A stretch of 64,000 bases of DNA from Nitrososphaerota archaeon (GCA_027887005.1 JAPCJI010000008.1:2162-66161); one strand, 5' to 3'; positions 5,222-48,739 are shown, counted from the first letter of the stretch. Numbers and translations: made by a program. Notes: a model not told the origin generated them from the letters alone.

Positions 5222-5245
5222 CGGAAGTTCGACCGCGGTTCAAAT

Positions 5246-5344
5246 GCGGGGGTACTCAAGCCTGGTCAACGAGGCGGGACTTAAGCGGTATCCTGAGAAA
5301 TCCCGTCCCTCAGGGGTTCGTGGGTTCGAATCCCACCCCCCGCA
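5246..5344 (+). tRNA. tRNA-Leu(UAA) with a ~14-nt intron at the canonical 37/38 position
   Basis: Hand fold:
- acceptor gcggggg/cccccgc
- anticodon stem cggga/tcccg with loop cttaag[cggtatcctgagaa]a
- long variable arm
- T-arm gtggg-ttcgaat-cccac. Confidence 0.8.
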
Positions 5345-5437
5345 TCAACAGAACCGAGAAATTGAACGCCCCTAGGATTCCCCTTGCGCAATGCTTGTTT
5401 AGGTGATGGCAAAGACCGCGTCTAGTTCGAGCAACCG

Positions 5438-26491: not shown

Positions 26492-28513
26492 TTAGAACGT
26501 CGCTCTCAGCTTCTGCATTAATGCCTGGTATCTAGGATCATCTCTTGATTTGGCCAGAAGTGGACAATACATCACGTACGCATATCGAATTGTGTGTTGG
26601 TCAAGTGCCAGATTGGCATAAGTGAAGTATGAATCGAGGTCCCCGAGAGCGTGGTAGATGAAGGCGATGTCATTCAGGTTCGTGGCTCCAAGCCACTTCT
26701 TCTCAATTTCTTGAATTACATCTAGGGCTCCTTTTCTGTCACCCGTGTAGCCAGCTATGAAGCCTCTCATCCATGTGGCCCAGCGATGAGTGGGGTCCAA
26801 CCTTTCTACTTTCGAATGAAACTCCCTCGCCTTTTCGACGTCACCTTTGTAGAGGTAATATTCGGTCATCGCTCTGTATGTGCCAGCGGGGGCGACCAGC
26901 ACCGTCTTCTCCCAGTGCTGCAGAGCCTTGTTCTCCATCCCAAGGTAGAAGTAGAACTGTCCAAGTCGCTCTGCGTAGCGCGCCAATACCGGATCTAGTC
27001 TGTAGCAACTCTCCGCGGCACTGATCCCTTCTTCCTTTTCGCCTCTCGTCAGAAAGACGTTGGACAGGACAAAGTGAGCCTCCGCAAGACTAGGGTTCAA
27101 TTCGATCGCACGTCTGGCTTCAGTTTCGCACCCTTGAATATCATCCTCTTGGAAGTGTACCCTTGCTAGAGTGGCATGCGCTTCGGCCAGTTCTGGGTCA
27201 ATTTGTAGGGCCTTTCTAACCGAGATATCTGCCTTGGGCATGTCCTGTTCATATGGCTCGTAGTTGTCGGTAACAAGCTCTGTGTAGGCCCAGGCAATTC
27301 CAGCATGAGCTTTGGCAAAGGTAGGATCAAGAGTTATCGCTCTTTCAAGTAATCCCAATGCCTGCCTCAAGGAGGATTCCGTCCTTTCGCGGATGAGCTC
27401 TCGTCCTCTCAAATACAGGGTGTAGGCCTCCGTGTTCTCTGTCGGCCTTCTTTCAATAACCCGTTTCTCATCCTCAACAAGTCGGATCTTGAGTTCCCCT
27501 GCGACCTTCTCAGCGATTTCAGATTGGATGGCAAAAACATCTTCCAATTGCCTGTCGTAATTCTGGGCCCAAATGTGACCTTCAGTCGCAGTGTCGATGA
27601 GCTGGGCAGTAATCCTGACCCTGTTTCCCGCCTTCCTCACGCTCCCTTCTAGCATGGTGCCTACCTCCAACTCCTTTCCAATCTCCTTCACTTTCTTCGT
27701 CGTCCCCTTGTATCCCATAACCGAAGTCCTAGCGATGACGGTGAGCTGCCTCACGCCGGATATTGAAGTGATGAGTTCCTCGGTCACGCCATCGGCGAAG
27801 TACCCCTCCTCTGGATCGGAGCTCAGGTTGGTGAATGGGAGAATTGCGATACGCTTCTTGTCCAATACAACGCCCATGGATTCCGGCCTCTCCCAAGGGA
27901 ACACCACCCTGAAAACCTCCAAGGATTCTCCGACGTTTTTCAGTTCTTTCTTGCCGATGCTGAGAAGTTGAAAATCAGATTTGTTCTTTACGTGGTCGTA
28001 CACATGCTCTGAAATGCAGACTCCTCCCGGCGTAGCAAGAGGTTCTATTCTGGAGGCAATGTTGACCGCGTCCCCGTATACATCGTTCTGACTGTGTATT
28101 ACGTCCCCTAGGTGGACACCTATTCGGAGAAATATCTTCCTATCCACGGGGCGACTTGAGTTGAGCTCATGCAGAGACTCCTGTACGTCGAAGGCGCACC
28201 TGACTGCCTCAAGGGCGCTTTCGAACTCTATGAGGAAAGCGTCGCCGATGGTTTTGACCTCTCTCCCGCCATGCCTCAAGAGCACGGGCCTGACGAGGAT
28301 ACGCTGTTCTTCCAAGAGTTCCATCGCAACTGCTTCATTCTTCTGCGTGAGGGATGTGTAACCAACTATGTCGGTGAACATTATCGCGGCGAGCCTTCGT
28401 TCCCCTTCTGACACAGAAAACTCCAGTCGTTTGGCCGTACCACAGGTTAACTCTTTCGTAGAGACCCAGCAACATTGTGGATCACGACGACATGGTATGA
28501 TGCCCCTCTCCAC
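26492..28513 (-). CDS. class III adenylate/guanylate cyclase fused to a TolB-N-like linker module and TPR repeats
   Basis: Cyclase motifs AAIMFTDIVGYTSL, GDAFLIEF, RIGVHLGDV and GDAVNIASR. These are followed by IAILPFTNLSSDPEEGYFADGVTEELIT and then multiple TPR units. Start uncertain (GTG). Confidence 0.8.
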   Translation of the reverse strand: MERGIIPCRRDPQCCWVSTKELTCGTAKRLEFSVSEGERRLAAIMFTDIVGYTSLTQKNEAVAMELLEEQRILVRPVLLRHGGREVKTIGDAFLIEFESALEAVRCAFDVQESLHELNSSRPVDRKIFLRIGVHLGDVIHSQNDVYGDAVNIASRIEPLATPGGVCISEHVYDHVKNKSDFQLLSIGKKELKNVGESLEVFRVVFPWERPESMGVVLDKKRIAILPFTNLSSDPEEGYFADGVTEELITSISGVRQLTVIARTSVMGYKGTTKKVKEIGKELEVGTMLEGSVRKAGNRVRITAQLIDTATEGHIWAQNYDRQLEDVFAIQSEIAEKVAGELKIRLVEDEKRVIERRPTENTEAYTLYLRGRELIRERTESSLRQALGLLERAITLDPTFAKAHAGIAWAYTELVTDNYEPYEQDMPKADISVRKALQIDPELAEAHATLARVHFQEDDIQGCETEARRAIELNPSLAEAHFVLSNVFLTRGEKEEGISAAESCYRLDPVLARYAERLGQFYFYLGMENKALQHWEKTVLVAPAGTYRAMTEYYLYKGDVEKAREFHSKVERLDPTHRWATWMRGFIAGYTGDRKGALDVIQEIEKKWLGATNLNDIAFIYHALGDLDSYFTYANLALDQHTIRYAYVMYCPLLAKSRDDPRYQALMQKLRATF

Positions 28514-34014: not shown

Positions 34015-35475
34015 TCAGCCCAGGACGTTCGGGACCGCGCCTGATGCGAAGTTTATCGCCTGCTGCGGGAAGAGCCCGATTCCGATCATCAGCCCGACCA
34101 GCACAGCGAAGACGATGACGAACCATTTCGGTTCCTTCACCCGCTCTGTGCTCTCCCCTTCGTCGATGTAAATGCGCTTGATGATCCAGGCGTAGTAGCC
34201 GAGGCTGAACGCGCTGTTGAGTATGCCCGCGACCGCGAGCCATCCGAACTGAGGGCTCGAGACGGAAAGGAAGAGGAGCAGTTTACTCCAGAAGCCGTTC
34301 AGCGGCGGGACCCCGGCGAGCCCGAGGAGGGCGATGGTCATGGTGAAGGCGGTTATCGGCATCCGCCTGGCGAGCCCGTTGTAGGCCCCGAGGTCGGCCC
34401 TCTTGAGCTGCATCAGGACCAGGCCCGCGCAGAGGAACGCGGCCCCCTTCATTATCGCGTGGTTGATGATATGGAAGATGGAGCCCGTCAGGCCGAGCGA
34501 AGCGGCCGACGAAGTGGGGTCGGCGGTGAAGGCGACGAACCCGATGAGGATGTAGCCGGCTTGGGCGATGCTCGAGTAGGCGAGGAGCCGGGTCATGCTC
34601 TTCTGCGTGAGGGCGGATACGTTGCCTACTGTCATTGTCAGCAGCGCGAGGACCGCGAAGACGTTGGCCATGGTGAAGAGCGGGCTCCTGGTCACGACGT
34701 AGAGGGTGGTCACCGCGAGGAGGACCCTGATGGCCGCGATGAACCCTGCCTTCTTGGTCGCCGCCGCGAGGAGCGTGCTGATGGGGGTGGGGGCGCCCTC
34801 GTAGGCGTCGGGAATCCACATGTGGAAGGGGACAATCGACATCTTGAAGCCGAAGCCCGCCACGAAGAGCAGGGCCGCGACTCCGCCCAGGGGGGACGCC
34901 GGATGCGAGAAGTACCACTGGGCCACGGCGGATATCTGGGTGCTGCCGGTCAGGCCGTAGGAGAGGCTGATCGCGTAGAGGATTATTGCCGATGACATGG
35001 CGCCGATGACCGCGTACTTCACTGCTGCCTCGTTAGATTGGGTCCTCTTGTCGAACCCCGCCAGGACGTAGGTGGGGAGGCTCATCAGTTCCCAGGCCAC
35101 GAAGAGCATCAGGAGGTCCGTGGAGTAGGACAGGAGGAGCATGCCGAGGGCGGTGAAGGACAGGAGACTGTAGTAGACTGGATTGAAGGACGTCCTCTGG
35201 AAGTCGAGAGAAGCGACGACCACGGCCAGGGTCACGCCCAGGGTGACCAGGGCGAAGACTCCCCCGAGTTGGTCCGGGGAGAGGAGGGACCCGAACCATG
35301 GGACAGGAGTTGGGTTGAGGGTGAAGACTGCGACCAAGAGGATGGCTGCGCCGAGGACGGCCGCAAGGATGTACCCGGAGAGATTCCAGTTCCGACCGTT
35401 GTAGAGCTGCAGGAGCGGGAGGAGGAGCGACGAGGCCCCGAGGAGCGCGACCGCGATCGTGATCAGGTCGACCAA
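34015..35475 (-). CDS. nuoN: NADH-quinone oxidoreductase subunit N
   Basis: Antiporter-like subunit with FHMWIPDAYEGAPTP, AYSSIAQAGY and PPLNGFWSK. Confidence 0.85.
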   Translation of the reverse strand: MVDLITIAVALLGASSLLLPLLQLYNGRNWNLSGYILAAVLGAAILLVAVFTLNPTPVPWFGSLLSPDQLGGVFALVTLGVTLAVVVASLDFQRTSFNPVYYSLLSFTALGMLLLSYSTDLLMLFVAWELMSLPTYVLAGFDKRTQSNEAAVKYAVIGAMSSAIILYAISLSYGLTGSTQISAVAQWYFSHPASPLGGVAALLFVAGFGFKMSIVPFHMWIPDAYEGAPTPISTLLAAATKKAGFIAAIRVLLAVTTLYVVTRSPLFTMANVFAVLALLTMTVGNVSALTQKSMTRLLAYSSIAQAGYILIGFVAFTADPTSSAASLGLTGSIFHIINHAIMKGAAFLCAGLVLMQLKRADLGAYNGLARRMPITAFTMTIALLGLAGVPPLNGFWSKLLLFLSVSSPQFGWLAVAGILNSAFSLGYYAWIIKRIYIDEGESTERVKEPKWFVIVFAVLVGLMIGIGLFPQQAINFASGAVPNVLG

Positions 35476-35476
35476 G

Positions 35477-36952
35477 CTATGCGAGCCCCCTGAGGAACTG
35501 GGCGACTGGGAGGGCGGGAGTCAGTATTAGGTATGAAGCGACGATGAGCACGACCAGAGGTATGAGGTAGACCGCGAAGGAGGCCAAGTCTCCGAGGTCC
35601 ATGTCATGGACCTCCGTCCCTTCGGGCAGGGACAGGACAGTCCGCTTGATCATCCATAGGAAGTAGCCAGCGGTTATGACCGGGACGAGGATCGAGACGG
35701 CTGTGATCGTGTAGGCGGAGATGCCGGCCGCGATGACCATGAACTCGGCCAGGAAACTTGCGAAGGGGGGAAGCCCCATGGCTGCGCCTGACGCGAGGAC
35801 GAGTATGGCGGCAGTGCGCGGCATGGTGAGACCGAGGCCCTTGAGGGAAGGGATCTCCCTGGTCCCTGCCTGATGCTGGATGTATCCCGACAGCATGAAG
35901 AGGCTCCCGACCGCGAGGGCGTGGGTGAACATCTGGAGGATGGCGCCCTGGATCCCCAGCAGGTTCCCTGATACCAGCGTTGCGTAGGCACCGAACAGGA
36001 CGAAGCCCATGTGGTTAATGCTCGTGAAGGCGATCATCTTCTTCAGGTCCTTCTGAAGGACTGCGGCCACCGCCCCGTAGAACATCGAGAAGAGGCCGAT
36101 GGCGAGGAAGGCCCAGGCATACTGGACTGACGCCTTGGGGAAGAGGCCGATGCTTATCCTGAGGAATCCGTAGCCGCCCATCTTCAGGAGCACCCCTGCG
36201 AGGAGCACGGAGATGGGGGACGGAGCTTCCACGTGCGCGTCAGGGAGCCAGGTGTGGAAGGGGACCAGGGGAAGCTTCACTGCGAAGCCGATGAAGGAGG
36301 CGAGGAGAGGCAGGTACTGCAGGCCGATGGGGATGTGCCCCGCGAGGGACGGTATGTCGAATGAGGGGACGGGCATCATCCCCAGGTAGACGTAGAGGAA
36401 GCCCAGGAGCATTATGGTGCTCCCAGCGTAGGTGAATAGGATGAACTTCATCGCCGCGTACTTGCGTCGGGGGCCTCCCCAGACTCCGATGAAGAAGAAC
36501 ATCGGGATGAGGACGACCTCCCAGAAGATGTAGAAGAGTATCAGGTTCAGGGAGGTGAAGACTCCCATGATCGCCCCCTCGAAGAGGAAGATCAGGGCGT
36601 AGTACTCGGGCTCGTGCTTGTCGATGAGCTTCCTCGAGCCGAGTATGGCGAGTAGGGTCAGCAGGGCCGAGACAAAGATCAGCGGGGAGCTGAGGCCGTC
36701 GGTGCCGAGGAAGTAGTCAAGCCCGAAGGACTTGAAGCTTATCCAGGAGTACTGCTCCTGCAGGAGGTACTGGCCGGGCGCCGGCGGGTTCGCGATGACC
36801 TGCCAGGAGATGTAGGTGGCCACGCCGAGGACGACGGCAGCGAGGCCGAGGCAGGCGTAGACCCCCCAGCGCTTGTTCATCCGTGTCAGGAGGTAGACCA
36901 GGGGGGAGGCCAGGAGCGGGAGGAAGACCAGCAGAGAGAGGACGAAGCTCAC
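35477..36952 (-). CDS. nuoM: NADH-quinone oxidoreductase subunit M
   Basis: FWEVVLIPMFFFIGVWGG, FHTWLPDAHVEAPSP...LLKMGGYG and PPFASFLAE. Confidence 0.85.
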   Translation of the reverse strand: MSFVLSLLVFLPLLASPLVYLLTRMNKRWGVYACLGLAAVVLGVATYISWQVIANPPAPGQYLLQEQYSWISFKSFGLDYFLGTDGLSSPLIFVSALLTLLAILGSRKLIDKHEPEYYALIFLFEGAIMGVFTSLNLILFYIFWEVVLIPMFFFIGVWGGPRRKYAAMKFILFTYAGSTIMLLGFLYVYLGMMPVPSFDIPSLAGHIPIGLQYLPLLASFIGFAVKLPLVPFHTWLPDAHVEAPSPISVLLAGVLLKMGGYGFLRISIGLFPKASVQYAWAFLAIGLFSMFYGAVAAVLQKDLKKMIAFTSINHMGFVLFGAYATLVSGNLLGIQGAILQMFTHALAVGSLFMLSGYIQHQAGTREIPSLKGLGLTMPRTAAILVLASGAAMGLPPFASFLAEFMVIAAGISAYTITAVSILVPVITAGYFLWMIKRTVLSLPEGTEVHDMDLGDLASFAVYLIPLVVLIVASYLILTPALPVAQFLRGLA

Positions 36953-39123
36953 GGCAGCCTACCTCCGAGTGCGAGCAGGAGGAAGGCGACCAGGATTATG
37001 ATCCCGATGGCGAAGACCTGGGCGTACTGTTCGACTATCCCCGTCTGCATCCTCCGGACGAAGCGCGAAAAGGCCTGACCGAGGGCGGAGAATCCGTTGG
37101 CCACTCCGTCTACGACCTTGACGTCGAACCAGTTGCCTGCCGTCGATAGTGACACGCCGAGCACCGACCCGGCCTGGTTGACCCTGAAGAGTCCTCTGAA
37201 GTCGAAGGTCTCGCTTAGCCAGCTGGCTGCGGCCATGGGAGCGTCCACGAAGACCTTGTAGTAGATCGCGTTGATGTACCACCTCTTGTAGAGGAAGGAG
37301 TAGAGCCCGTGCATGAAGCCCGTGGCGCCGACGAACCTGCTCGCGCTCGTCCTTCGAATGAGGTAAATGGCCGCGGCTGCGAGGAACCCAATCGCTACGA
37401 AGAGGCCGACGATGCCGGAGGCGGCCGCGTTGAAACCTGCCTGAGGCGAGGAGAGGACCTGCGAGGGGAAGAACGTCTGGACGTACGAAGTGGCCGCCGA
37501 GTCGAGGGTGGCCTCCACGTTGAACGCGGGGACGGCAAGGCCCAGGAGCGCCCCCAGCCCGATCAGCACGGTCGCGCCTGCCAGTATCCCGTAGGGGATC
37601 CACATGATTGGGCTTGGCTCATGGACGTGGTGGCCGCTCCCCTCGACCTCTTCTAGCCGCTTGCTCCTCCCCCCGAAGAATACCAACCCCAGCATCCTGA
37701 ACGAATAGAAGGCGGTGAGACCTGCTGTCAGTGCCCCAACTGCGAAGAGGGCGTACTGCCCCGCTCCCCAGGCTGCTCCCAGGACCGCGTCCTTGCTCCA
37801 AAAGCCGCTGAAGGGCGGGATGCCAGAGAGGGACGCGACTGCTATGAGGAACGCCGCGAAGGTGAGCTTCATCCTGTCCCTCATCCCACCCATGTCGCTG
37901 ATGTACTTCGAGTCTGAGGCGTGGATCAGGGCACCGGCGGCCAGGAACAGGCAGGCCTTGAAGATGGCGTGGCTCATGAGCTGGTAGAGGCCTGCTGCCA
38001 GGCCCTGGGCGAAGTCGACGGAGAGGCCCGCGACACCGACAGCGAGCATCATGTAGCCGATCTGAGACATGGTCGAGTAGGCGAGGATCTTTTTCAGCTC
38101 GAACCCAACTAGAGCCTGGCTCGCGGCCAGGACGGCGGTGAACGCGCCGATCCATGCCACCGTGAGGAAGAAGGGTTGGACCGAGGCGAGCCCGAGGGTC
38201 GGGTTCGCCAGGGCGATGAAGTAGAAGATTGGTGCTATCCTCGCGACCAGCACCACGCCGGCCTTGACCATCGTGGCGGCGTGGATGAGGGCTGACACTG
38301 GTGCGGGGCCCGCCATAGCGTCAGGGAGCCATTCGTGCAGGGGGAACTGGGCCGACTTGCCCACTGCACCGCCGAAGATCAGGAGGGCCACCGGAACGAG
38401 CAGGCCGGACCTGGACAGGCCTTCGAACCAGGAGTGCGAGTCCGAGGCGAGCTGGTAGTAGTTGAATGTCCCGGCGTAGTAGAAGAGGATCAGGATCCCC
38501 GCGAGCATCGCCACGTCGCCGACCCTGGTCATTACGAACGCCTTCATCCCTGCGTGCGACGGGGAGTAGGCCTGGTCTTCGCCCAGGGCCCTGTCTCCGG
38601 GGGTGCCGACCCAGTCCTTGGTCTCGTCCTTCCAGTAGTGCCCGATGAGGGCGTAGCTGCATAGGCCGACCATCTCCCAGCCCACGAAAAGGGAGAGGAG
38701 GTTGTCGGAAAGGACGATGAGCTGCATGCTCCCGACGAAGAGGCTGACGAAGAAGAAGTAGCGGTTGGAACCCCCGTCTTCCTTCATGTATTCGAGACTG
38801 TAGACCATGATCAGGAAGCTCACCCAGGCCACGACGTTGGTCAGTATGGCGGTGTAGGGGTCGGTCAGGACGCCGACGGTGAGGTTCAGTCCTGAAATCC
38901 ATGGCACGCTCTTCGGAATCACCGAATCGACCACGCTCAGGGCCTGTCCTTCGAGGAGGGGAAGGAGCATGCTCAGGGCGAAGGCCGCAGAGAGGAAGGA
39001 GAACGCAACCGAGACCACGTTGGCGGGCCTTCCGGCCTTTCTGAGGGCTACGGTCAGCAGCGCGCCGGCGTAGGGCAGGATGAAGATGAGCCAGACGAAG
39101 TAGGACGGGATTACGAAGGTCAC
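36949..39123 (-). CDS. nuoL: NADH-quinone oxidoreductase subunit L, unusually long (724 aa)
   Basis: LHEWLPDAMAGPAPVSALIHAATMVKAG, PPFSGFWSK and a C-terminal lateral-helix region (DVKVVDGVANG...RRMQTGIVEQY). GTGA overlaps at both ends. Confidence 0.85.
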   Translation of the reverse strand: MTFVIPSYFVWLIFILPYAGALLTVALRKAGRPANVVSVAFSFLSAAFALSMLLPLLEGQALSVVDSVIPKSVPWISGLNLTVGVLTDPYTAILTNVVAWVSFLIMVYSLEYMKEDGGSNRYFFFVSLFVGSMQLIVLSDNLLSLFVGWEMVGLCSYALIGHYWKDETKDWVGTPGDRALGEDQAYSPSHAGMKAFVMTRVGDVAMLAGILILFYYAGTFNYYQLASDSHSWFEGLSRSGLLVPVALLIFGGAVGKSAQFPLHEWLPDAMAGPAPVSALIHAATMVKAGVVLVARIAPIFYFIALANPTLGLASVQPFFLTVAWIGAFTAVLAASQALVGFELKKILAYSTMSQIGYMMLAVGVAGLSVDFAQGLAAGLYQLMSHAIFKACLFLAAGALIHASDSKYISDMGGMRDRMKLTFAAFLIAVASLSGIPPFSGFWSKDAVLGAAWGAGQYALFAVGALTAGLTAFYSFRMLGLVFFGGRSKRLEEVEGSGHHVHEPSPIMWIPYGILAGATVLIGLGALLGLAVPAFNVEATLDSAATSYVQTFFPSQVLSSPQAGFNAAASGIVGLFVAIGFLAAAAIYLIRRTSASRFVGATGFMHGLYSFLYKRWYINAIYYKVFVDAPMAAASWLSETFDFRGLFRVNQAGSVLGVSLSTAGNWFDVKVVDGVANGFSALGQAFSRFVRRMQTGIVEQYAQVFAIGIIILVAFLLLALGGRLP

Positions 39124-40634
39124 GCGTGTATCCCTCCTATGGGCAGGCTGCTGGCGAAGGCGATCAGGAACTTCGAGACCAGGTCAGGGTAGATGCCGAT
39201 GACTATGGATGCGACCACCAACGCGAGCATGGGTATCGTCATCGTCAGCGGCGCGTCCCTGACCCCTTCGAGGGTCGGCGGGAGCGAGCCGAAGAAGATC
39301 CTGCGGACCGGCCAGAATGTGTAGGCGACGGTCAGGAGGGTCGCGATGAGCCCGAGGATTGCGACCAGCAGATAGCTGGAGGAGCCGGCGGCGCCCTGGG
39401 AGAAGATGCCCGCGAACATTATCCACTCTGCCTGGAAACCGCTCGTGGGAGGGACGGCAGAGAGTATCAGGGCTCCCAGCACGAAGATGGAAGCTGTGAA
39501 CGGCATCTTCGCGGCCAGGCCGCCCATCTGTTTGACGTCTCTGAGGCCCGTCTGAGTGAGGAGTATCCCTGCCACGGCGAACATCACGAACTTCCCGAGG
39601 ATGTGGCTCGCGAAGTAGAAGACTCCCCCTGCTACACCGAGGGCAGACCAGCTGGCGATCCCCAGGATTGAGTAGGCGTTCTGGCTCATGGTCGACCAGG
39701 CGAAGATGTACTTGACGTCGGTCTGGGCGACGGTCACGGCGCCCCCGTAGAACATTGTGACGACTGCCCAGACCATCAACGGGAGGCTGAAGGTGTGGAA
39801 GGTCGAGGGCATGCCGAAGAGCAGCAGCCGCGCGATGACGTAGCTCCCAATGCCCGAGACGACAGCCATCGTTGGCGCGAAGGAGGTCGGGGGCTCTGCC
39901 TCAGTTATCGGAAGCCACATGTGCAGACCGAACACCGCCATCTTGACAAGCCAGCCCACGAGAATCAGCCCGGCGATCCAGAAAGCGATGGAGCTCGACT
40001 GGGCCAGGTGGAGGGCGCCTATCTCGAAGCTCCCTGTTGCGACGTAGGCCAGGGCGATGCCGGCGAGGAATACGAAAGCACCGAGCTGGTTCCAGATGAT
40101 GTAGATTATGCCGACCCTTTCCCTGTCGACGTAGCCGAAGAGGCTGATGATCACGAAGGTCGGTATCAGGACCGTCTCAAGAAAGAGGTAGAGCTCGATG
40201 AGGTTTGTCGAGAGGAGTATGCCGTCCAGCCCGGCGGAGACCAGCATGAAGCTGAGGTAGTAGATTCCGTAGCTCCCATGCCTGTCTTCCCCGTAGAGCG
40301 AATTGACCCGGGTCGTCATGTAGGGCATTGAATAGACTGCGGTCGCCGCCAGGACGAGGTTCACCACGATCACCAGGGGGAAGCTGAGACTGTCGGCCAG
40401 GAAGCCGAAGGTCAGGCCTGCGCTGGGGGCCCAGGTGTAGGACTCGAGGACCTGTGAGATGCTCCCCGTGAAGAGCTGTGAGGCTGCGAGCAGGAGCAGG
40501 GAAGCGGTTGTGATAAGGAGGGCGGCAAAGGCGAGCCATCCGACGTTCTTTCCGAGCTTCCCCGCCCCCAGGTAGCAGAGGGCCGCGAATACCATGGGAA
40601 GGACTACGGTCTGGAGAAGGAGGTATTGGTACAT
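39120..40634 (-). CDS. additional, divergent NuoM-like antiporter-type subunit
   Basis: Proton_antipo_M-type core: LFLETVLIPTF, LHMWLPITEAEPPT, AWSTMSQNAY and PPTSGFQAE. Located between nuoK and nuoL. Confidence 0.75.
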   Translation of the reverse strand: MYQYLLLQTVVLPMVFAALCYLGAGKLGKNVGWLAFAALLITTASLLLLAASQLFTGSISQVLESYTWAPSAGLTFGFLADSLSFPLVIVVNLVLAATAVYSMPYMTTRVNSLYGEDRHGSYGIYYLSFMLVSAGLDGILLSTNLIELYLFLETVLIPTFVIISLFGYVDRERVGIIYIIWNQLGAFVFLAGIALAYVATGSFEIGALHLAQSSSIAFWIAGLILVGWLVKMAVFGLHMWLPITEAEPPTSFAPTMAVVSGIGSYVIARLLLFGMPSTFHTFSLPLMVWAVVTMFYGGAVTVAQTDVKYIFAWSTMSQNAYSILGIASWSALGVAGGVFYFASHILGKFVMFAVAGILLTQTGLRDVKQMGGLAAKMPFTASIFVLGALILSAVPPTSGFQAEWIMFAGIFSQGAAGSSSYLLVAILGLIATLLTVAYTFWPVRRIFFGSLPPTLEGVRDAPLTMTIPMLALVVASIVIGIYPDLVSKFLIAFASSLPIGGIHA

Positions 40635-40696
40635 TGGTGGTTACACCCGAGGGCCGCTGACGATGTCGCGGAAGGATGGTTTTCTCGTTGACATTG

Positions 40697-41026
40697 TTAC
40701 CCTTCCATGGATTTCAGCTCGCTCACGTCCACGTCCTTGTGGAGCCTGTAGGCGACGACGACTATGGCGAGGATGACGGCAGCCTCCGCGGCCGCGAGGG
40801 CGATGGAGAAGAGCACGAAAGTCTGGCCGACCCCGTTGACCACGGTCGCGCCCGCAGCGGCGAACGGGGCATACTGGCTGAAGGCGATGAAGTTCAGGTT
40901 TGCGGCATTGATCATTATCTCCACTGCGAAGAGCAGGCGAAGTGCGTTCCTCTTGGTCACCAGGCCGTAGATTCCGATGCCGAAGAGCATGGCCGATACG
41001 AGGACGAAGTCCGTCAGCGAGTTCAC
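40697..41026 (-). CDS. nuoK: NADH-quinone oxidoreductase subunit K
   Basis: 109 aa with 3 TM segments. GIGIYGLVTKRNALRLLFAVEIMINA contains the conserved Glu. GTGA overlap with nuoJ. Confidence 0.85.
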   Translation of the reverse strand: MNSLTDFVLVSAMLFGIGIYGLVTKRNALRLLFAVEIMINAANLNFIAFSQYAPFAAAGATVVNGVGQTFVLFSIALAAAEAAVILAIVVVAYRLHKDVDVSELKSMEG

Positions 41027-41529
41027 TGACTCTTTTCCTCCCTGTCGACCCTGGAAAGGGTCAGGGCGCCGACGACCGAAGCAGCGAGGACGAAGGCGAG
41101 GACCTCGAGCACGGGCGCGTAGTTGGTCGAGATGAGCTGGCCTATCTGGAGGAACCCCGCGGTGTTCTGAATGCTGGTCAGCCCCGAGAGGTCGGTGGCT
41201 ACCAAGGCGAAGGCGAGCGCTATGATGACGGCCAGGCCCGTGAGGACTCCGGCCAGCTTGGTAACGGACTTGGCAGGGACCTCCTTGGCCCACTTCTCTT
41301 CCCGCACGAGCATCACGGTGAAGAGTATCAGGACGGCAATTGCTCCGATGTAGACGGCTATCTGGAAGACGGCAACATAGGGCGCGTCCAGCAGGAAGAA
41401 GAGGGTGGCTACCCCGAAGAGGCTGCCGGCCAGGCCGATTGCGCCGTAGACGATCTCTTCGGCTTCGAGGGCCACTATGGCGCTTCCGACTGTGACCACC
41501 ATCATGGCGATGAAGATCAGGTCAGCCAT
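41023..41529 (-). CDS. nuoJ: NADH-quinone oxidoreductase subunit J
   Basis: 168 aa. Hydrophobic with the typical YVAVFQIAVYIGAIAVL segment. Confidence 0.8.
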   Translation of the reverse strand: MADLIFIAMMVVTVGSAIVALEAEEIVYGAIGLAGSLFGVATLFFLLDAPYVAVFQIAVYIGAIAVLILFTVMLVREEKWAKEVPAKSVTKLAGVLTGLAVIIALAFALVATDLSGLTSIQNTAGFLQIGQLISTNYAPVLEVLAFVLAASVVGALTLSRVDREEKSQ

Positions 41530-42037
41530 GTCTGGTCGTACCTCTTTCGGTGTCGAACTCCACCCTGTACTTCCTCCCCTCCAGCTTTGGAGGGACGGCG
41601 AGCATGTCCGGAGTGTACTTCAGGCCTGCCTTGTCGTAGGCCGCAAGCTCGTATTCGTTCGTCATGTAGAGGGCATCAAACGGGCAGGCGTCCACGCAGA
41701 GTGCGCAGAAGACGCACCTCCCGTAGTCGACCGCTGGCCAGATGTCCTTCTTGTTATGGGCCTTCCCCTTCTTCACGTTCTGCATCTCTATGGCTACGGC
41801 CACTCCGTCGCAGGCTATGGCGCAGAGCTGGCAGCCGGTGCACTTGTCGAAATAGAGGATGTGCCGGCCCTTGAAGCCGGGAAGGCCCACCCCCTGCTTG
41901 GGGTCGTACTTGTACCCCGGCCCCTGGAGGTCCAGCTTCTGCTCCGGGTAGCGAAGGGTCATCCTCGGACGGGTGAGGTGCCTTAAGCCGCTCCAAGTGG
42001 CGATCAAGACGCCCTTGATGTACGAGAGGGTCCCCAT
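41522..42037 (-). CDS. nuoI: NADH-quinone oxidoreductase subunit I (2x[4Fe-4S])
   Basis: CTGCQLCAIACD and CVFCALCVDACP ferredoxin motifs. Confidence 0.9.
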   Translation of the reverse strand: MGTLSYIKGVLIATWSGLRHLTRPRMTLRYPEQKLDLQGPGYKYDPKQGVGLPGFKGRHILYFDKCTGCQLCAIACDGVAVAIEMQNVKKGKAHNKKDIWPAVDYGRCVFCALCVDACPFDALYMTNEYELAAYDKAGLKYTPDMLAVPPKLEGRKYRVEFDTERGTTRHG

Positions 42038-43207
42038 CTAGGCGATCCCCAGGGAGACAATCAGCAAGGTGAGGAAGATGTTCGCGAAGGCCAGCACCAG
42101 GAGGCGGACCCAGCCTCCCCTCAGGAGCAGGTCGATTCTCAACCTGGGCAATATGCTGCGCGGGAGCATCATGACGAGCATGACAACGGTCGTCTTCAGT
42201 ATGAACCAGACCTCTGGGGGAACGGGAGCTGGACCAAGCCATCCGCCGAGGAAGAAGGTTGTGAAGAGTCCTGCGAGTATGTACATCCGGGAGAAGTTTG
42301 CAAGCTGGAATGTCCCGAAGAGCATGCTGCTGTATTCTGTCTGCCACCCTGCGACTATCTCGCTATCGGCCTCCGGGATGTCGAAGGGGATCCGCTCGAG
42401 CTCGGCGAGCGCGCCGATGAAGAAAACAAAGGCCCCGAGGGGCTGGAGGACGATGTACCAGAGGCCGTTCTGGTGCGTGACTATCTGCATCAGGTTGAGG
42501 GATCCCGAGAGGATTACCGCGCCAAGGAGGGAGAGGACAAGAGGGATCTCGTAGGCGACCAACTGATGCAACGCCCTCACGCCGCCGAGGAAGGGGTACT
42601 TGCTGTTGCTTGCCCAGCCGGCCAGCAGGACGATCAGCGGAGAAAAGCCGAGAATTGCGAACACCAGTATCGCACCCACTGAGGGATTTGCGATGTAGGT
42701 GGTCGGGGAGAGGGGGACGAGGGCGACGAGGGCCCCTGCGACGGCCATCAGGGCGAACGGGACGGCCACGAAGGTGCCTTTGTCGACGCCGTCGGGGATG
42801 ATCATCTCCTTGAAGAGCAGCTTGAAGAAGTCGGCGACGTTCTGGAGGATTCCTTCGAACTTCCCGGCGTACATCGGACCCGTCCTGAGCTGGATCTTCG
42901 CAGTGAACTTCCTTTCTACCCAGCCCATGAAGATGGTGGAGTAGACGGCCACGAAACTGAAACCGGGAAACACGGTCAGGGCGAACAGAGTCTTGAAGGG
43001 CTCGGTGTTGATCAGGTTAAGCTGGATGGCTAGGAAGTCCAGGGGCTTGACGGTCGCCAGGGCGAAGATGTCCGTGGGGAGGCGGAGGGCGGCGAAGACA
43101 AGGTAGTAGATGGGGAGGACTATGAACACGGTAAGGAGGAGGACCCAGAAGACTACCCTGATGATTCTCTTGAGGAAGTCCTCGAAGGTTATGATGGGCT
43201 TCGACAT
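42038..43207 (-). CDS. nuoH: NADH-quinone oxidoreductase subunit H
   Basis: 389 aa with RTGPMYAGKFEGILQNVADFFK, AELERIPFDIPEADSEIVAG and EYSS motifs. Confidence 0.9.
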   Translation of the reverse strand: MSKPIITFEDFLKRIIRVVFWVLLLTVFIVLPIYYLVFAALRLPTDIFALATVKPLDFLAIQLNLINTEPFKTLFALTVFPGFSFVAVYSTIFMGWVERKFTAKIQLRTGPMYAGKFEGILQNVADFFKLLFKEMIIPDGVDKGTFVAVPFALMAVAGALVALVPLSPTTYIANPSVGAILVFAILGFSPLIVLLAGWASNSKYPFLGGVRALHQLVAYEIPLVLSLLGAVILSGSLNLMQIVTHQNGLWYIVLQPLGAFVFFIGALAELERIPFDIPEADSEIVAGWQTEYSSMLFGTFQLANFSRMYILAGLFTTFFLGGWLGPAPVPPEVWFILKTTVVMLVMMLPRSILPRLRIDLLLRGGWVRLLVLAFANIFLTLLIVSLGIA

Positions 43208-43296
43208 CTCGACTCGAGACCTTCCAATTGACGGTTCCGTCTACCCGTTATAAACGTGGGGGAATACTGAGTCTTGAGACGAGGCATGAGTTCCTG

Positions 43297-43593
43297 TCAA
43301 AGGACTTCTATGGAGCTCTCGGAGAAGCCATGTTGCATGAGCATCTTCTGGGCGGCCTCCCGGTGGTCTCCCTGAAGGATCATGATCCCGTCCTTGACTG
43401 TCCCGCCGGTGGCAAGGGCCCGTTTCATCTTGGAGCTCAGCTCGTGCATATCCTTTTCGCTCATCTTCAACCCTTCGATCACTGTGGTGGGCTTGCCAAA
43501 GCGGCGCATCTCCATCCGGATTTTTACACGGGCTTCTTCACGGTCGAGCTCGGCGAGAATATCCTGGAATCCTTCGTCTAGGTCCTTGCTCAC
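43297..43593 (-). CDS. SUI1: translation initiation factor aSUI1 (eIF1 homologue)
   Basis: 98 aa with RRFGKPTTVIEGL...LATGGTVKDGIMILQGDHRE. Confidence 0.85.
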   Translation of the reverse strand: MSKDLDEGFQDILAELDREEARVKIRMEMRRFGKPTTVIEGLKMSEKDMHELSSKMKRALATGGTVKDGIMILQGDHREAAQKMLMQHGFSESSIEVL

Positions 43594-43679
43594 GACTTAC
43601 GTTTGGCTTCGGTTTTGAGGGTCTAATTAGGCTTTGGTCATTTGCTTAAAGCCATCGCCTTCCGAACCGATGAAACCGT

Positions 43680-43788
43680 GGGCCCGTAGCTCAGCGTCTG
43701 GAAAAGGCGGGAAATTCGGTTAGAGCGACCGGCTCATACTCCCGGAGGAGACACCGGTCGGTCGCCAGTTCAAATCCGGCCGGGCCCA
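43680..43788 (+). tRNA. tRNA with CAU anticodon (elongator Met or Ile2) carrying two insertions: ~18-21 nt in the D-loop and ~14 nt at 37/38
   Basis: Hand fold:
- acceptor gggcccg/cgggccc
- D-stem gctc/gagc enclosing 30 nt
- anticodon arm accgg-ctcata[ctcccggaggagac]a-ccggt
- T-arm gccag-ttcaaat-ccggc with one A-C mismatch. Confidence 0.7.
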
Positions 43789-43792
43789 CACT

Positions 43793-44251
43793 TCACTGAT
43801 TCTTCTTTGGGGCGCCCGGTGTCTTCCAGTCGGGAAACGTGCTGAAATGCTCGTGGGCTATCTTCCAGCCTTTCATGGTCCTCGCGAGCACCATGGTCAC
43901 CCTCGCCCTCGAGCCCACGGGTGAACCCTCGAAGGAGTAGTCGTTGATGAACATCCCCTTGTATGCCAGGTAGAAGGTGGCCACCGCCGCGTCCCCCAGG
44001 AGGTCGATCCGCAGGCTGTCGATTTGGTACGAGTAGTCGGAGATGTTGGCGAAGGCGGCCTGCTCGTGAACGAACGCCTCCTCCGAGTTCTGTCTGGTGT
44101 AGGGGGCGTTTTCGTCGAACTTCGAGAAGGAATCGTGGGCCGAGTGGAAGCCAGCGAGGGAGCTCAGGTCCTTGTTCTTCCCCGCCTCGAAGAAGCCGAA
44201 GATGACCGAGGTTATCTCCTTCTTTTCCCTGTCCGACTGTGATTCAGCCAT
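43793..44251 (-). CDS. NTF2-like / SnoaL-type (DUF4440-like) protein
   Basis: 152 aa. The pattern FFEAGKNKDL ... GDAAVATFYL ... RVTMVLART-KGWKIAHEHFS is typical of SnoaL-like folds. Confidence 0.55.
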   Translation of the reverse strand: MAESQSDREKKEITSVIFGFFEAGKNKDLSSLAGFHSAHDSFSKFDENAPYTRQNSEEAFVHEQAAFANISDYSYQIDSLRIDLLGDAAVATFYLAYKGMFINDYSFEGSPVGSRARVTMVLARTMKGWKIAHEHFSTFPDWKTPGAPKKNQ

Positions 44252-44321: not shown

Positions 44322-44419
44322 GGCGCCGTAGCTCAGAAGCAGGTAGCTGCTGGGCAGCGTGGTAGAGCAGCAGGCTGTTAACCTGTTGGTCGTCGGTTCG
44401 AGTCCGACCGGCGCCGCCA
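44322..44419 (+). tRNA. tRNA-Asn(GUU) with a ~22-nt D-loop insertion and a genomically encoded CCA
   Basis: Hand fold:
- acceptor ggcgccg/cggcgcc
- D-stem gctc/gagc enclosing 30 nt (ag + aagcaggtagctgctgggcagc + gtggta)
- anticodon arm gcagg-ctgttaa-cctgt
- T-arm gtcgg-ttcgagt-ccgac
- discriminator g followed by cca. Confidence 0.75.
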
Positions 44420-46311: not shown

Positions 46312-47961
46312 TTACCAGAAGGGCGTGAAGCTGACCATGGTTGAGCTCGAATTGCTGAACGTCACCCTGTATGTGGACGCATTTGGCTGCCCCTGGACTC
46401 CTGGGAATGATTCACCCCACCTCCAGAGCACCTTCCAGTAGGACTGGTCACCCTGGAGAGATTCTGAGTGGTCGATGCAGCTCCATGTCCCCTGCCAGAA
46501 TATCGACGGACACGAGAATGAGACAGACCAAGGACCGCTTAGGTCTCCAAGCTTTGAAACCCCGAATTGGAAGAAGAAGGCGCCGCCCGGGGAAGGATTG
46601 TCCGGAGGACCGAGCCAGCCTGCATTGAAGGCAACGTTCGCGCGCGCCGACGCTTCGAAAGCTCCAAGCTGGTTCGTCTGACCGCCGGTGCTGTACTCCC
46701 AGAGGACCGTGTGATTCTCCCAACTCAGCGTCAGCTGGAGTTGATCCCCGGGATTCACGACGGTGAAGTGTCGAGAGGCGAAGAACATCAGGAGCCGCCA
46801 GGAGTGACCTCCGCAGGCGGCGTTCGCATCGCAGACCTTCCAGGCAGTGGCGTCGAGCATCTGACTTCCGTTCCCGTACAGGATTGCGTCGAAACGGTAG
46901 CCGTAGTCAATCCCGTCGGTGCAGCAGTCGGCAGAGTGGACCCCGATGCCTCCGGCGAGGAAACCTCCCGCCGGGGCGGAGGAAAGGTCGTGACTGGGGA
47001 AGGTCACGTTGACCCTCACGCCAGTGGGCCGGACCATCGGGCTTGACATGAATCCTCCCGCCGAGTCTGGAATGCCATAGTAGTAGCTAGTAGGTGCTCC
47101 TGAGTTCGAAGTCGAAATAACCTGTCCTACAACCGCGTCGGGCCAGACCACCAGGGAAACTAGGATCACGAAGACGAGCATCCCTGCAAATGGGAGGGGC
47201 GACCGCCTGAAGCGCGTAGTGGCCCGGGTCGGGCGCAAGAGGATGAAAGCCCCCGCTGTTGCTCCCGCCAGAGTTGCGAGGATAGTCAGACCGACCGTGG
47301 GGAAAATCTCCGAATAATACTGCTTGGCCATGCCCAGGCTGACCAGGACAAGCGCTGCCTGGGCTGCAAGCGGCAGGAGCCATGTCGCGGGCCGCGTTCT
47401 GTCCGCGAATAGGAGGACAGCCGAGAATGCGAGGAACGCCAGGAGGGCGGGAAGTGCGGCTCCGTCGGCGGGCGCTAGAATCGTCGCTCCTGCGATGGTG
47501 AAGACCATGGGGATGTATGCGACGGCGTAGAAGGCGCTCCCGCCCGCAAGCAGCCTCTCCCAATCGCCTCTGTCTGAAGTACTGCCTCTGCGGTGGCCGA
47601 GGTATGCGGTCGCGATCCCTATGGCGAGGAAGAACGAACCCATCCTTGCAGGCTCGAGGCCGTCGACCCCAGTGCTGTAGCATAGGATTGGGTCGCAGAC
47701 GGTGAAGAACAGAGTCATGAGGGTCAGGACGGAGATGAGGTATGCCAACCAGGCGTGCACCAGGCTCCTGCTTCCGTAGCCGATGACTACCCCGGCGAAG
47801 GCGAGATAGTAGATATCGAAGTAATACCGCTGGCCCGAGAAGAGGAAGAAGAGGTTGCTATGGAAAAGATAGAGGTTCTGGGCGAGTCTTTCGAAGGCAT
47901 ACGGCGGAACCACAGTCAGTACCAGCGCGAGGGGCCACCAGAGTATCCGGAACGTCGCCAT
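46312..47961 (-). CDS. polytopic membrane protein with a ~270-aa Cys-containing beta-rich C-terminal (probably extracellular) domain
   Basis: About 9 N-terminal hydrophobic helices followed by a Gly/Ser/Trp-rich domain (GGFLAGGIGVHSADCCTDGIDYGYRF...). Starts 7 nt after the stop of the C1 peptidase gene. Confidence 0.55.
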   Translation of the reverse strand: MATFRILWWPLALVLTVVPPYAFERLAQNLYLFHSNLFFLFSGQRYYFDIYYLAFAGVVIGYGSRSLVHAWLAYLISVLTLMTLFFTVCDPILCYSTGVDGLEPARMGSFFLAIGIATAYLGHRRGSTSDRGDWERLLAGGSAFYAVAYIPMVFTIAGATILAPADGAALPALLAFLAFSAVLLFADRTRPATWLLPLAAQAALVLVSLGMAKQYYSEIFPTVGLTILATLAGATAGAFILLRPTRATTRFRRSPLPFAGMLVFVILVSLVVWPDAVVGQVISTSNSGAPTSYYYGIPDSAGGFMSSPMVRPTGVRVNVTFPSHDLSSAPAGGFLAGGIGVHSADCCTDGIDYGYRFDAILYGNGSQMLDATAWKVCDANAACGGHSWRLLMFFASRHFTVVNPGDQLQLTLSWENHTVLWEYSTGGQTNQLGAFEASARANVAFNAGWLGPPDNPSPGGAFFFQFGVSKLGDLSGPWSVSFSCPSIFWQGTWSCIDHSESLQGDQSYWKVLWRWGESFPGVQGQPNASTYRVTFSNSSSTMVSFTPFW

Positions 47962-47968
47962 CGGAATC

Positions 47969-48739
47969 CTAGGTCACCACCCTGATGGTCCAGAAGTCAC
48001 TAGAAAGATACTCGCTCAGGAGGTACTCGTAGGGCATGGTGAAGTATCCAGCTCTGCCGAACCTCGGCCCCCAGGAGTTCCTCACCCAGAACCTCCGCTT
48101 GGGCTCTTCGTAGCCCACGGCCAGGACGGCGTGATGTCCGATGATCCTCTCTCCCTGAGAAGGCATCTCCAGCCGCCCGGTCCTCTTCACGATGTCTTGG
48201 AACCTCTGATGGGCCAGAAAGCCGAAGACGAAGGGATAGCCAGAAGCGATGCAGCTACGAAAGTCCTCGATGCTCCGGCGTATTCTCTGATACGCCACGA
48301 GCCTGTACTTGAGCGCGTCATCGTAGCACTCCCTGGGGGGTCTAGTCCTGAATCTCTTCTCCACGTAGGGCCAGAGGCTTTCAGGGCAGTCCCCCAGCTT
48401 CGCGACCGACTTGAGCGTGTCCCGTATGGAGATGCCGACATTGGACCTTACGGTCCCTTCAGCTGCCCGGACGTTGTAGTAGAGGAACAGGCGGGAGGGG
48501 AATATCACCCTTCTTTTCTTCTCCTTGATCAGGTCGAATTCGACGGCAGCCGCAACTGCGTTCGCCGAGCAGCTGTTCAGTTCCTTCTGGTGGTAGACAG
48601 GAGGGCATTTGCTCCTCAGGTCTCTGGTATTGGGAAGTAGGCGGAACAGGTCAGGAGGAGGCAGGTAAGCGCGGTCCCTGTCGTCGGGGAGGTCCTTCTT
48701 CCAGCCGAAGCCGTGGGTCGTAGACGTGGTCGGGTGCAA
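47969..48739 (-). CDS. papain-family (C1) cysteine peptidase without an obvious signal peptide or pro-domain
   Basis: DLRSKCPPVYHQKELNSCSANAVAAA (Gln and catalytic Cys), GHHAVLAVGY (His) and WVRNSWG (Asn-Ser-Trp). Confidence 0.8.
   Translation of the reverse strand: MHPTTSTTHGFGWKKDLPDDRDRAYLPPPDLFRLLPNTRDLRSKCPPVYHQKELNSCSANAVAAAVEFDLIKEKKRRVIFPSRLFLYYNVRAAEGTVRSNVGISIRDTLKSVAKLGDCPESLWPYVEKRFRTRPPRECYDDALKYRLVAYQRIRRSIEDFRSCIASGYPFVFGFLAHQRFQDIVKRTGRLEMPSQGERIIGHHAVLAVGYEEPKRRFWVRNSWGPRFGRAGYFTMPYEYLLSEYLSSDFWTIRVVT

Follow-up and report, generated by a model that had tools for sequence, protein, structure and literature searches.

A nuo gene cluster with four antiporter-like subunits in a Gagatemarchaeaceae-like archaeon, probably the membrane arm of a 2M-type complex I

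An eight-gene nuo cluster and its relatives

The window analysed here is a stretch of 64,000 nucleotides (nt) from a Nitrososphaerota archaeon (GCA_027887005.1 JAPCJI010000008.1:2162-66161). Eight co-directional open reading frames (ORFs) occupy positions 34015-43207 of its minus strand in the order nuoH-I-J-K, X, nuoL-M-N, their identities being assigned with Pfam and NCBIfam profiles (Table 1). X designates an extra antiporter-like gene, and four PF00361 proteins are thus encoded within one overlapping cluster. In the 2M complex I of Chadwick (2018), a second NuoM is combined with a lengthened lateral helix of NuoL (PMC6606698, PMC9040806), and the helix insertion is reported to measure ~26 amino acids (aa) (PMC9040806). 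On the evidence of its sequence, the present cluster probably encodes the membrane arm (NuoH, J, K, N, M, X and L) of such an enzyme, together with its iron-sulfur (Fe-S) connector NuoI.

The genes are tightly coupled, as a preliminary description of this DNA had claimed, and ORF, profile and junction checks agree on this point. GTGA start/stop overlaps lie exactly at 41023-41026 (nuoJ/nuoK), 39120-39123 (X/nuoL) and 36949-36952 (nuoL/nuoM). At the other junctions, nuoH and nuoI are separated by no gap, nuoI and nuoJ overlap by 8 nt, and 1 nt lies between nuoM and nuoN. The sole real gap in the cluster, 62 nt between nuoK and X, was inspected and contains neither a TTTAWA box nor an oligo-T run. 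The TTTATAA box that precedes nuoH is likely to be the promoter of a nuoH-N transcription unit. Of 50 related loci, 35 have a TTTATAA or TTTTAAA box ahead of the called nuoH start, mostly at a distance of 37-52 nt, and this recurrence fits an independent archaeal promoter for nuoH-N. None of the eight genes is disrupted, and their conservation across many genomes amounts to 57-94% identity. Identity to the E. coli proteins ranges from 33 to 42% for NuoL, M, N and H, with 42% for NuoL and 37% for NuoM.

Table 1. Features of the nuo cluster, with positions counted from the first nucleotide of the window
Feature	Position	Strand	Description
nuoH	42038-43207	-	389 aa; PF00146 1.5e-96; NF004741 315 bits, above the 305 cut-off
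nuoI	41522-42037	-	171 aa; 2x[4Fe-4S] ferredoxin-type; TIGR01971 97 bits and Fer4 domains; intein-free
nuoJ	41023-41529	-	168 aa; PF00499 3.9e-26
nuoK	40697-41026	-	109 aa; PF00420 3e-27; NF004320 88.5 bits, above the 57 cut-off
X, extra antiporter-like subunit	39120-40634	-	504 aa; PF00361 5e-48; best NCBIfam match TIGR01972 (NDH_I_M) 228.8 bits, below the 263.8 cut-off
nuoL	36949-39123	-	724 aa; TIGR01974 479.9 bits, above the 407.5 cut-off; elongated lateral helix
NuoL lateral-helix insertion, 26-27 residues	37093..37173	-	aa 651-677 = AGSVLGVSLSTAGNWFDVKVVDGVAN plus one more residue
nuoM, canonical M	35477-36952	-	491 aa; TIGR01972 436.3 bits, above the 263.8 cut-off
nuoN, final gene of the cluster	34015-35475	-	486 aa; best NCBIfam match TIGR01770 303.5 bits
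TTTATAA box	43248..43254	-	41-47 nt ahead of the nuoH ATG; likely promoter, of archaeal type, for the nuoH-N unit

Related loci, 80 in all, were retrieved using X and split into class A (~57 thaumarchaeal loci) and class B (Bathyarchaeia, Caldarchaeales and others). Class A loci with complete flanks mostly follow the order SnoaL, SUI1, nuoH-I-J-K-X-L-M-N, then atpI on the opposite strand and atpC, and the more distant ones retain nuoH-N without the SUI1 or ATPase genes. Loci from Subgagatemarchaeum and Gagatemarchaeum MAGs are among those with the layout that includes SUI1. The position of X in the cluster is invariant across the related loci. The class B layout comprises nuoB-CD-I, nuoH-A on the other strand, then nuoJ-K followed by an N-like gene, a gene for a NuoL of 670-694 aa and an X-like gene. 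Class B thus has three antiporter-like genes only, and the X orthologue, 49-53% identical, is its sole M-type subunit.

Subunit X and the lateral helix of NuoL

X is, as far as its sequence can tell, an old archaeal-type NuoM paralogue. Profile scores, trees, diagnostic residues and pairwise identities together argue for this affiliation, and against both a Mrp, Mbh or Hyf origin and a recent copy of nuoM. Among NCBIfam models, those of MrpD type score ~169 bits on X, compared with the higher score of NDH_I_M. X is about equidistant from its paralogues in the window (28% identity to M, 28% to L and 25% to N), and the idea that it is a recent duplicate of the adjacent nuoM was rejected at this level of identity to M.

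The phylogenetic evidence comes from neighbour-joining (NJ) trees with a reference set free of Ech-type sequences. In a tree of 64 sequences and 458 columns (100 bootstraps), the X family, made up of class A X and the class B X-like proteins, is monophyletic with a bootstrap of 100. The canonical M clade, which unites class A M, including the NuoM of the window, with E. coli NuoM and NdhD1, also reaches 100, and NuoN groups with E. coli NuoN at 99. MrpD, MrpA, MbhH and HyfB/D/F all fall outside X and canonical M. A second tree of 105 sequences, with representatives at 50% identity, places X within a broad M-type radiation and leaves the N-type, Mrp/Mbh-type and Hyf-type proteins outside. The named proteins closest to X are without exception archaeal "NuoM" sequences, and their sources are Bathyarchaeia, deep Nitrososphaeria, Wolframiiraptor, Thermoprotei, Methanosuratincola, Fervidicoccaceae and Asgard archaea.

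Among 15 aligned X-family sequences, E153 in transmembrane helix (TM) 5, K231 in TM7, H344 and K348 in TM11 and E403 in TM12 are invariant. The TM12 glutamate is common to NuoM and NdhD (and also occurs in HyfB and HyfF), and a lysine occupies this position in MrpD, MrpA, MbhH, HyfD, NuoL and NuoN of the type found in the window. The extra NuoM-like gene announced in the preliminary description is thus of M type by its best profile match, by two trees and by its TM12 glutamate. Clustering with Mrp or Mbh subunits, which that description had named as the outcome that would speak against it, was not seen in the trees.

NuoL exceeds the 613-aa E. coli protein by 111 aa, close to the excess of ~100 aa first noticed for this 724-aa protein. 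In the alignment with E. coli NuoL, 119 residues are unmatched, namely 1-6, 169-187, 311-318, 365-372, 500-508, 548-561, 651-677 and smaller runs. The last of the listed segments lies in the lateral helix. It has no counterpart in E. coli (27 residues, 651-677) or in any of the five aligned NuoL sequences from three-pump archaea (26 residues, 652-677), and 652-677 is the sole large difference from a three-pump class B NuoL. The additional length had been linked to an elongated lateral helix, and this holds for 26-27 of the ~111 residues. The other ~90 extra residues are loops, mostly shared with the three-pump relatives and therefore unrelated to a fourth pump. The full excess of ~100 aa was accordingly rejected as a signature of the fourth pump, the three-pump NuoL of Bathyarchaeia having 670-694 aa with most loops the same. 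The converse concern, that the extra length might have nothing to do with the lateral helix, is answered by the position of the insertion at 651-677.

The length of the helix was compared across loci by counting the residues between its RWY(I/L)(N/D) and Q(T/N/S)G motifs. This spacing is 79 in the window and 49 in E. coli. It is 78-79 in all 42 scorable loci of X-L-(M-N) layout, with two further loci at 107 and five unscorable, and 53 in all 13 loci of N-L-X layout, two of which are truncated. The presence of the insertion therefore tracks the fourth antiporter-like gene perfectly in the 55 scored loci. Self-similarity along the lateral helix is maximal at an offset of 26, between the repeats FDFRGLFRVNQAGSVLG and FDVKVVDGVANGFSALG (shuffle P = 0.003 for the chosen register), and the score at this offset is 55 in locus L039. 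Since the self-similarity peaks at exactly 26 residues, the sequence suggests that the insertion arose via tandem duplication of a 26-residue helix segment.

A separate peculiarity concerns class B NuoL, which has a lysine at the position of the TM5 glutamate in six of six sequences (for example L065:7911-9989). The other antiporter-like subunits examined have a glutamate there.

Host, neighbouring genes and other features

Gagatemarchaeaceae are abundant, uncultured and slow-growing archaea of acidic soils. Judged by sequence, the host of the window is a Gagatemarchaeaceae-like thaumarchaeon of Group I.1c that does not oxidise ammonia. X matches, at 100% identity, a protein from a metagenome-assembled genome (MAG) labelled "Thaumarchaeota archaeon", and the nearest genomic relatives include the MAGs SubAcS15-57 and SubAcS15-15 (Ca. 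Subgagatemarchaeum) and AcS1-27 and AcS4-109 (Ca. Gagatemarchaeum). The guanine plus cytosine (GC) content of the window is ~60%, and the family, described as a non-ammonia-oxidising family of Group I.1c, has a GC content of 54-62% (PMC10640624). The main text of that genome paper makes no mention of nuo genes.

Upstream of the cluster lie SUI1 (43297-43593, PF01253), a SnoaL-like gene and tRNA-Asn (44343-44419), so that the earlier report of aSUI1 and a tRNA in the place of nuoABCD agrees with what was found. A probable intron-containing tRNA-Met(CAT) is located at ~43680-43789 on the plus strand, between SUI1 and the SnoaL-like gene. It was missed by default ARAGORN and by Rfam; ARAGORN in intron mode finds an imperfect model, and more than one intron is possible. 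Rfam scans of the window and of 43600-43850 returned two tRNAs only, none linked to the nuo operon. Downstream, nuoN converges on the gene for A-type ATPase subunit I, which ends at 34007 and is accompanied by that for subunit C.

Two genes of the cluster have features of their own in the related loci. NuoH carries an N-terminal extension of ~60-70 aa with one extra hydrophobic helix (VVFWVLLLTVFIVLPIYYLVFAAL), encoded at 42950-43207 in the window, where the Pfam match begins at residue 86. Class A loci, whose NuoH proteins mostly have 388-420 aa, have kept this extension, and it is absent from NuoH of Bathyarchaeia (317-332 aa) and E. coli (325 aa). Of 55 related thaumarchaeal loci, ~37 have a nuoI whose second CxxCxxCxxxCP [4Fe-4S] motif is interrupted by one or two inteins. 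With slashes marking the intein boundaries, site a reads DYGR/C...VHN/CVFCGLCVD and contains a LAGLIDADG-like 'LIGYYLAEGS' motif, and site b reads CVFCGL/C...TSN/CVDACPF. Examples are L007:7494-9113 and the genes of loci L001 (540 aa), L003 (715 aa), L046 (818 aa) and L038 (827 aa). Inteins in an Fe-S subunit of complex I appear unusual.

Elsewhere in the window, a 100-nt ARAGORN tRNA call at 5245-5346 on the plus strand (anticodon not determined; Rfam tRNA 42.9 bits) is probably another intron-containing archaeal tRNA. A 673-aa protein encoded at 26492-28513 on the minus strand joins an adenylate/guanylate cyclase catalytic domain to TPR repeats, a combination that appears unusual for an archaeon. 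The 549-aa ORF at 46312-47961 on the minus strand has no Pfam match at E <= 1e-5 and adjoins the gene of a papain-family cysteine protease (47969-48739).

A probable 2M-type complex I and its alternatives

Both features cited for 2M complex I are found at this locus, that is, an M-type fourth antiporter-like gene and a ~26-aa insertion in the lateral helix of NuoL. The 2M interpretation had already been put forward in the preliminary description, and it is now supported by the affiliation of X and by the strict association of the helix insertion with the fourth gene. Among the proton-path residues looked for in a 2M subunit, X possesses the TM5 glutamate, the TM7 lysine, the TM11 histidine and lysine and the TM12 glutamate, and lacks the TM8 lysine.

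Such enzymes have been described in the same phylum. 2M complex I of "clade 2" is known from heterotrophic marine Thaumarchaea (PMC7300363), and the enzyme is reported with a duplicated M and without NuoEFG in ammonia-oxidising Nitrososphaerales and in Angelarchaeales (PMC9038741). As it is already published for Thaumarchaeota, the window represents a further member of a published class. It shares with these systems a second NuoM-type subunit, a proposed extra proton per cycle and, within the window, the absence of NuoEFG, and differs in its Gagatemarchaeaceae-like host and in its unlinked nuoABCD genes. For comparison, the locus tags given for Nitrososphaera viennensis imply a contiguous nuoA-B-C-D-H-I-J-K-M-L-N order (PMC11561398). 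A literature search by locus tags for the gene order in Nitrosopumilus maritimus found no papers. New here are the Gagatemarchaeaceae-like host and the conserved separation of nuoABCD from a cluster with its own TATA box. New as well are the nature of X, an M of archaeal type that lacks the TM8 lysine and serves Bathyarchaeia as their sole M, and the apparent origin of the helix insertion by duplication.

In the proposed mechanism, quinone reduction at the NuoB/D/H site would drive a charge relay via NuoH, A, J and K towards four antiporter-like modules, not three. All four antiporter-like subunits would assemble into one arm clamped by the longer NuoL helix. As an alpha-helix, 26 residues span ~39 Å, which, judged by known complex I structures, is roughly the width of one antiporter-like subunit, so that a helix longer by this amount would still be able to clamp the longer arm. 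The expected outcome would be five H+ per two electrons instead of four, or a larger driving force in reverse.

Several observations weigh against this assignment. NuoA, B and CD were not found in the 64-kb window by tblastn with E. coli and bathyarchaeal queries. In the 64-sequence tree, the sister relationship of the X family to canonical NuoM/NdhD has a bootstrap of only 54, and all the trees are of the NJ type. The TM8 lysine, which connects both half-channels in canonical NuoM and NuoN, is replaced in X (S260), with serine or valine in all 15 X-family sequences. Finally, an AlphaFold2 model of NuoL built from a 28-sequence alignment is uninformative on the helix (mean predicted local distance difference test score, pLDDT, of 48.8, and below 50 in the helix region) because the alignment is too shallow, the retrievable homologues all being at least 76% identical.

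The separation of the quinone-reduction module (Q-module) genes is not specific to the window. No nuoB or nuoCD was found within up to 10 kb of flank of any class A locus, and the separation in every class A locus makes it a lineage trait. The preliminary description was right that nuoABCD are not upstream and that nuoEFG are missing from the window, as tblastn agrees across the 64 kb. Its view of the unlinked Q-module genes as a peculiarity of this cluster does not stand, since no related thaumarchaeal locus has them linked and the Chloroflexi 2M complexes show a similar split (PMC7117926). The genes nuoA/B/C/D are assumed to be encoded elsewhere in the genome. NuoE, F and G were not found in the 64-kb window, nor nuoE/F/G in any related locus (tblastn, E. 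coli queries), so the NuoE/F/G module of a canonical 14-subunit NADH:quinone oxidoreductase is seen in neither. A full complex I without NuoEFG is reported for heterotrophic marine Thaumarchaea (PMC7300363), and ferredoxin has been proposed as the electron donor of related enzymes (PMC9038741). Assignment to Fpo was rejected on scores below the respective cut-offs (FpoL 321.8/1050, FpoH 224.7/475, FpoK 93/145 and FpoI 74/180), and no FpoF or FpoO domain was found among the window ORFs scanned, which do not include every ORF.

The alternative that survives best is that four modules are indeed assembled, with X serving as a structural or regulatory spacer or as a passive or half channel, and that the stoichiometry stays at four H+ per two electrons. 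The replaced TM8 lysine would fit such a role, and so would the change of the 'PDAH' motif after TM7 to WLPITE in the X family. This alternative is nevertheless unlikely, as the other ionisable positions in TM5, TM7, TM11 and TM12 are all conserved. NuoL is likewise without a lysine at the TM8 position (valine at the aligned column), and there a nearby histidine serves in its place. Moreover, X-type proteins are the only M-type subunits in the three-pump complexes of Bathyarchaeia and Caldarchaeales, where a dead module would be costly.

It is far less probable that X belongs to another machine, such as a Mrp-type antiporter or a hydrogenase-like complex, and lies inside the nuo cluster by chance. 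In a single-sequence search against solved structures, MbhH and MrpD (125 bits each) score marginally above NdhD1 (123) and NuoM (110), and the match of X to NDH_I_M remains under the curated cut-off. The cluster itself, however, is devoid of MrpB/C/E/F/G and of hydrogenase genes. The one gene of MrpC/NuoK type scores as NuoK, and NuoH, I and J are present, which is not the make-up of a Mrp antiporter. A scan of ~30 neighbouring window ORFs likewise found no MrpB, E, F or G. X also shares a 4-nt start/stop overlap with nuoL and keeps its place in all related loci, and the NuoL insertion occurs only where X accompanies M and N. The M-type glutamate in TM12 and the position of Mrp, Mbh and Hyf outside in the trees point the same way. 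Equally improbable is a remnant or stand-alone membrane module, acting as a non-redox cation translocator after loss of nuoABCD from the genome: their absence from the window and from the flanks of every related thaumarchaeal locus would fit it, but NuoI, which would be without a role in the absence of NuoB and NuoD, is still encoded and its cluster motifs are unbroken, none of the eight well-conserved genes is disrupted, split nuo operons are known for the 2M complexes of Chloroflexi (PMC7117926), and a full NuoEFG-less enzyme is reported for heterotrophic marine Thaumarchaea (PMC7300363).

The 2M-type enzyme that is thus favoured can be set beside other complexes. In Nitrospira 2M complex I, or 'clade 3' (PMC6606698, PMC9040806), four antiporter-like subunits also go together with a ~26-aa NuoL insertion at a comparable position. 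That system is bacterial, its cluster is without nuoH, nuoE and nuoF and has an enlarged nuoG, and its origin is reported as independent. In the Chloroflexi 2M complex (PMC7117926), the operon is split and the Q-module genes lie apart from the membrane-arm genes, as here; the order there is nuoL-M1-M2-N and nuoI accompanies nuoB and nuoCD, whereas here X lies between nuoK and nuoL and nuoI accompanies nuoH. The rhizobial 'green' complex I and the five-pump complex of Manganitrophus (PMC9040806) also have more than three antiporter-like subunits, with a lengthened helix in Manganitrophus. Their extra subunits are MrpD-like and replace NuoL, in contrast to the M-type extra subunit and the retained NuoL of the present cluster.

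Canonical complex I (E. coli NuoA-N, T. thermophilus Nqo1-14) has orthologues of NuoH, I, J, K, L, M and N, and differs by its three pumps, a lateral helix 26-27 residues shorter, the NuoEFG module and a single operon of 13 or 14 genes. In the three-pump complexes of Bathyarchaeia and Caldarchaeales (L058-L080), the M-type subunit is the X orthologue of the joint clade described above. Their NuoL shares most loop insertions with that of the window but not the 26-residue helix insertion, their gene order is K-N-L-X, and nuoB, nuoCD, nuoI, nuoH and nuoA are adjacent. The status of X as sole M in these archaea, its archaeal nearest relatives and its missing TM8 lysine lie behind a tentative scenario for the origin of the four-pump arm. 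X may be the ancestral archaeal M, to which a canonical NuoM and an E. coli-type N were added later, the tandem duplication in the helix having re-clamped the arm. The complex would then be a mosaic with two mechanistically different M modules, one with and one without the central lysine, and would have involved no duplication of nuoM. This scenario is possible, though it is less likely than not to be the correct one.

Current views of complex I are not overturned by this cluster, the four-pump architecture being already published. The X-L-M-N and N-L-X loci nevertheless constitute a natural experiment, in which one extra antiporter-like module is tied to exactly 26 extra residues in the lateral helix. 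Without its central TM8 lysine, X is also a naturally occurring variant with which the importance of that residue could be tested. A fourth pump, if true, alters how much energy is gained at the entry of the respiratory chain, or how strongly reverse electron flow is driven there. The higher H+/electron ratio would help explain the low-energy life of Gagatemarchaeaceae.

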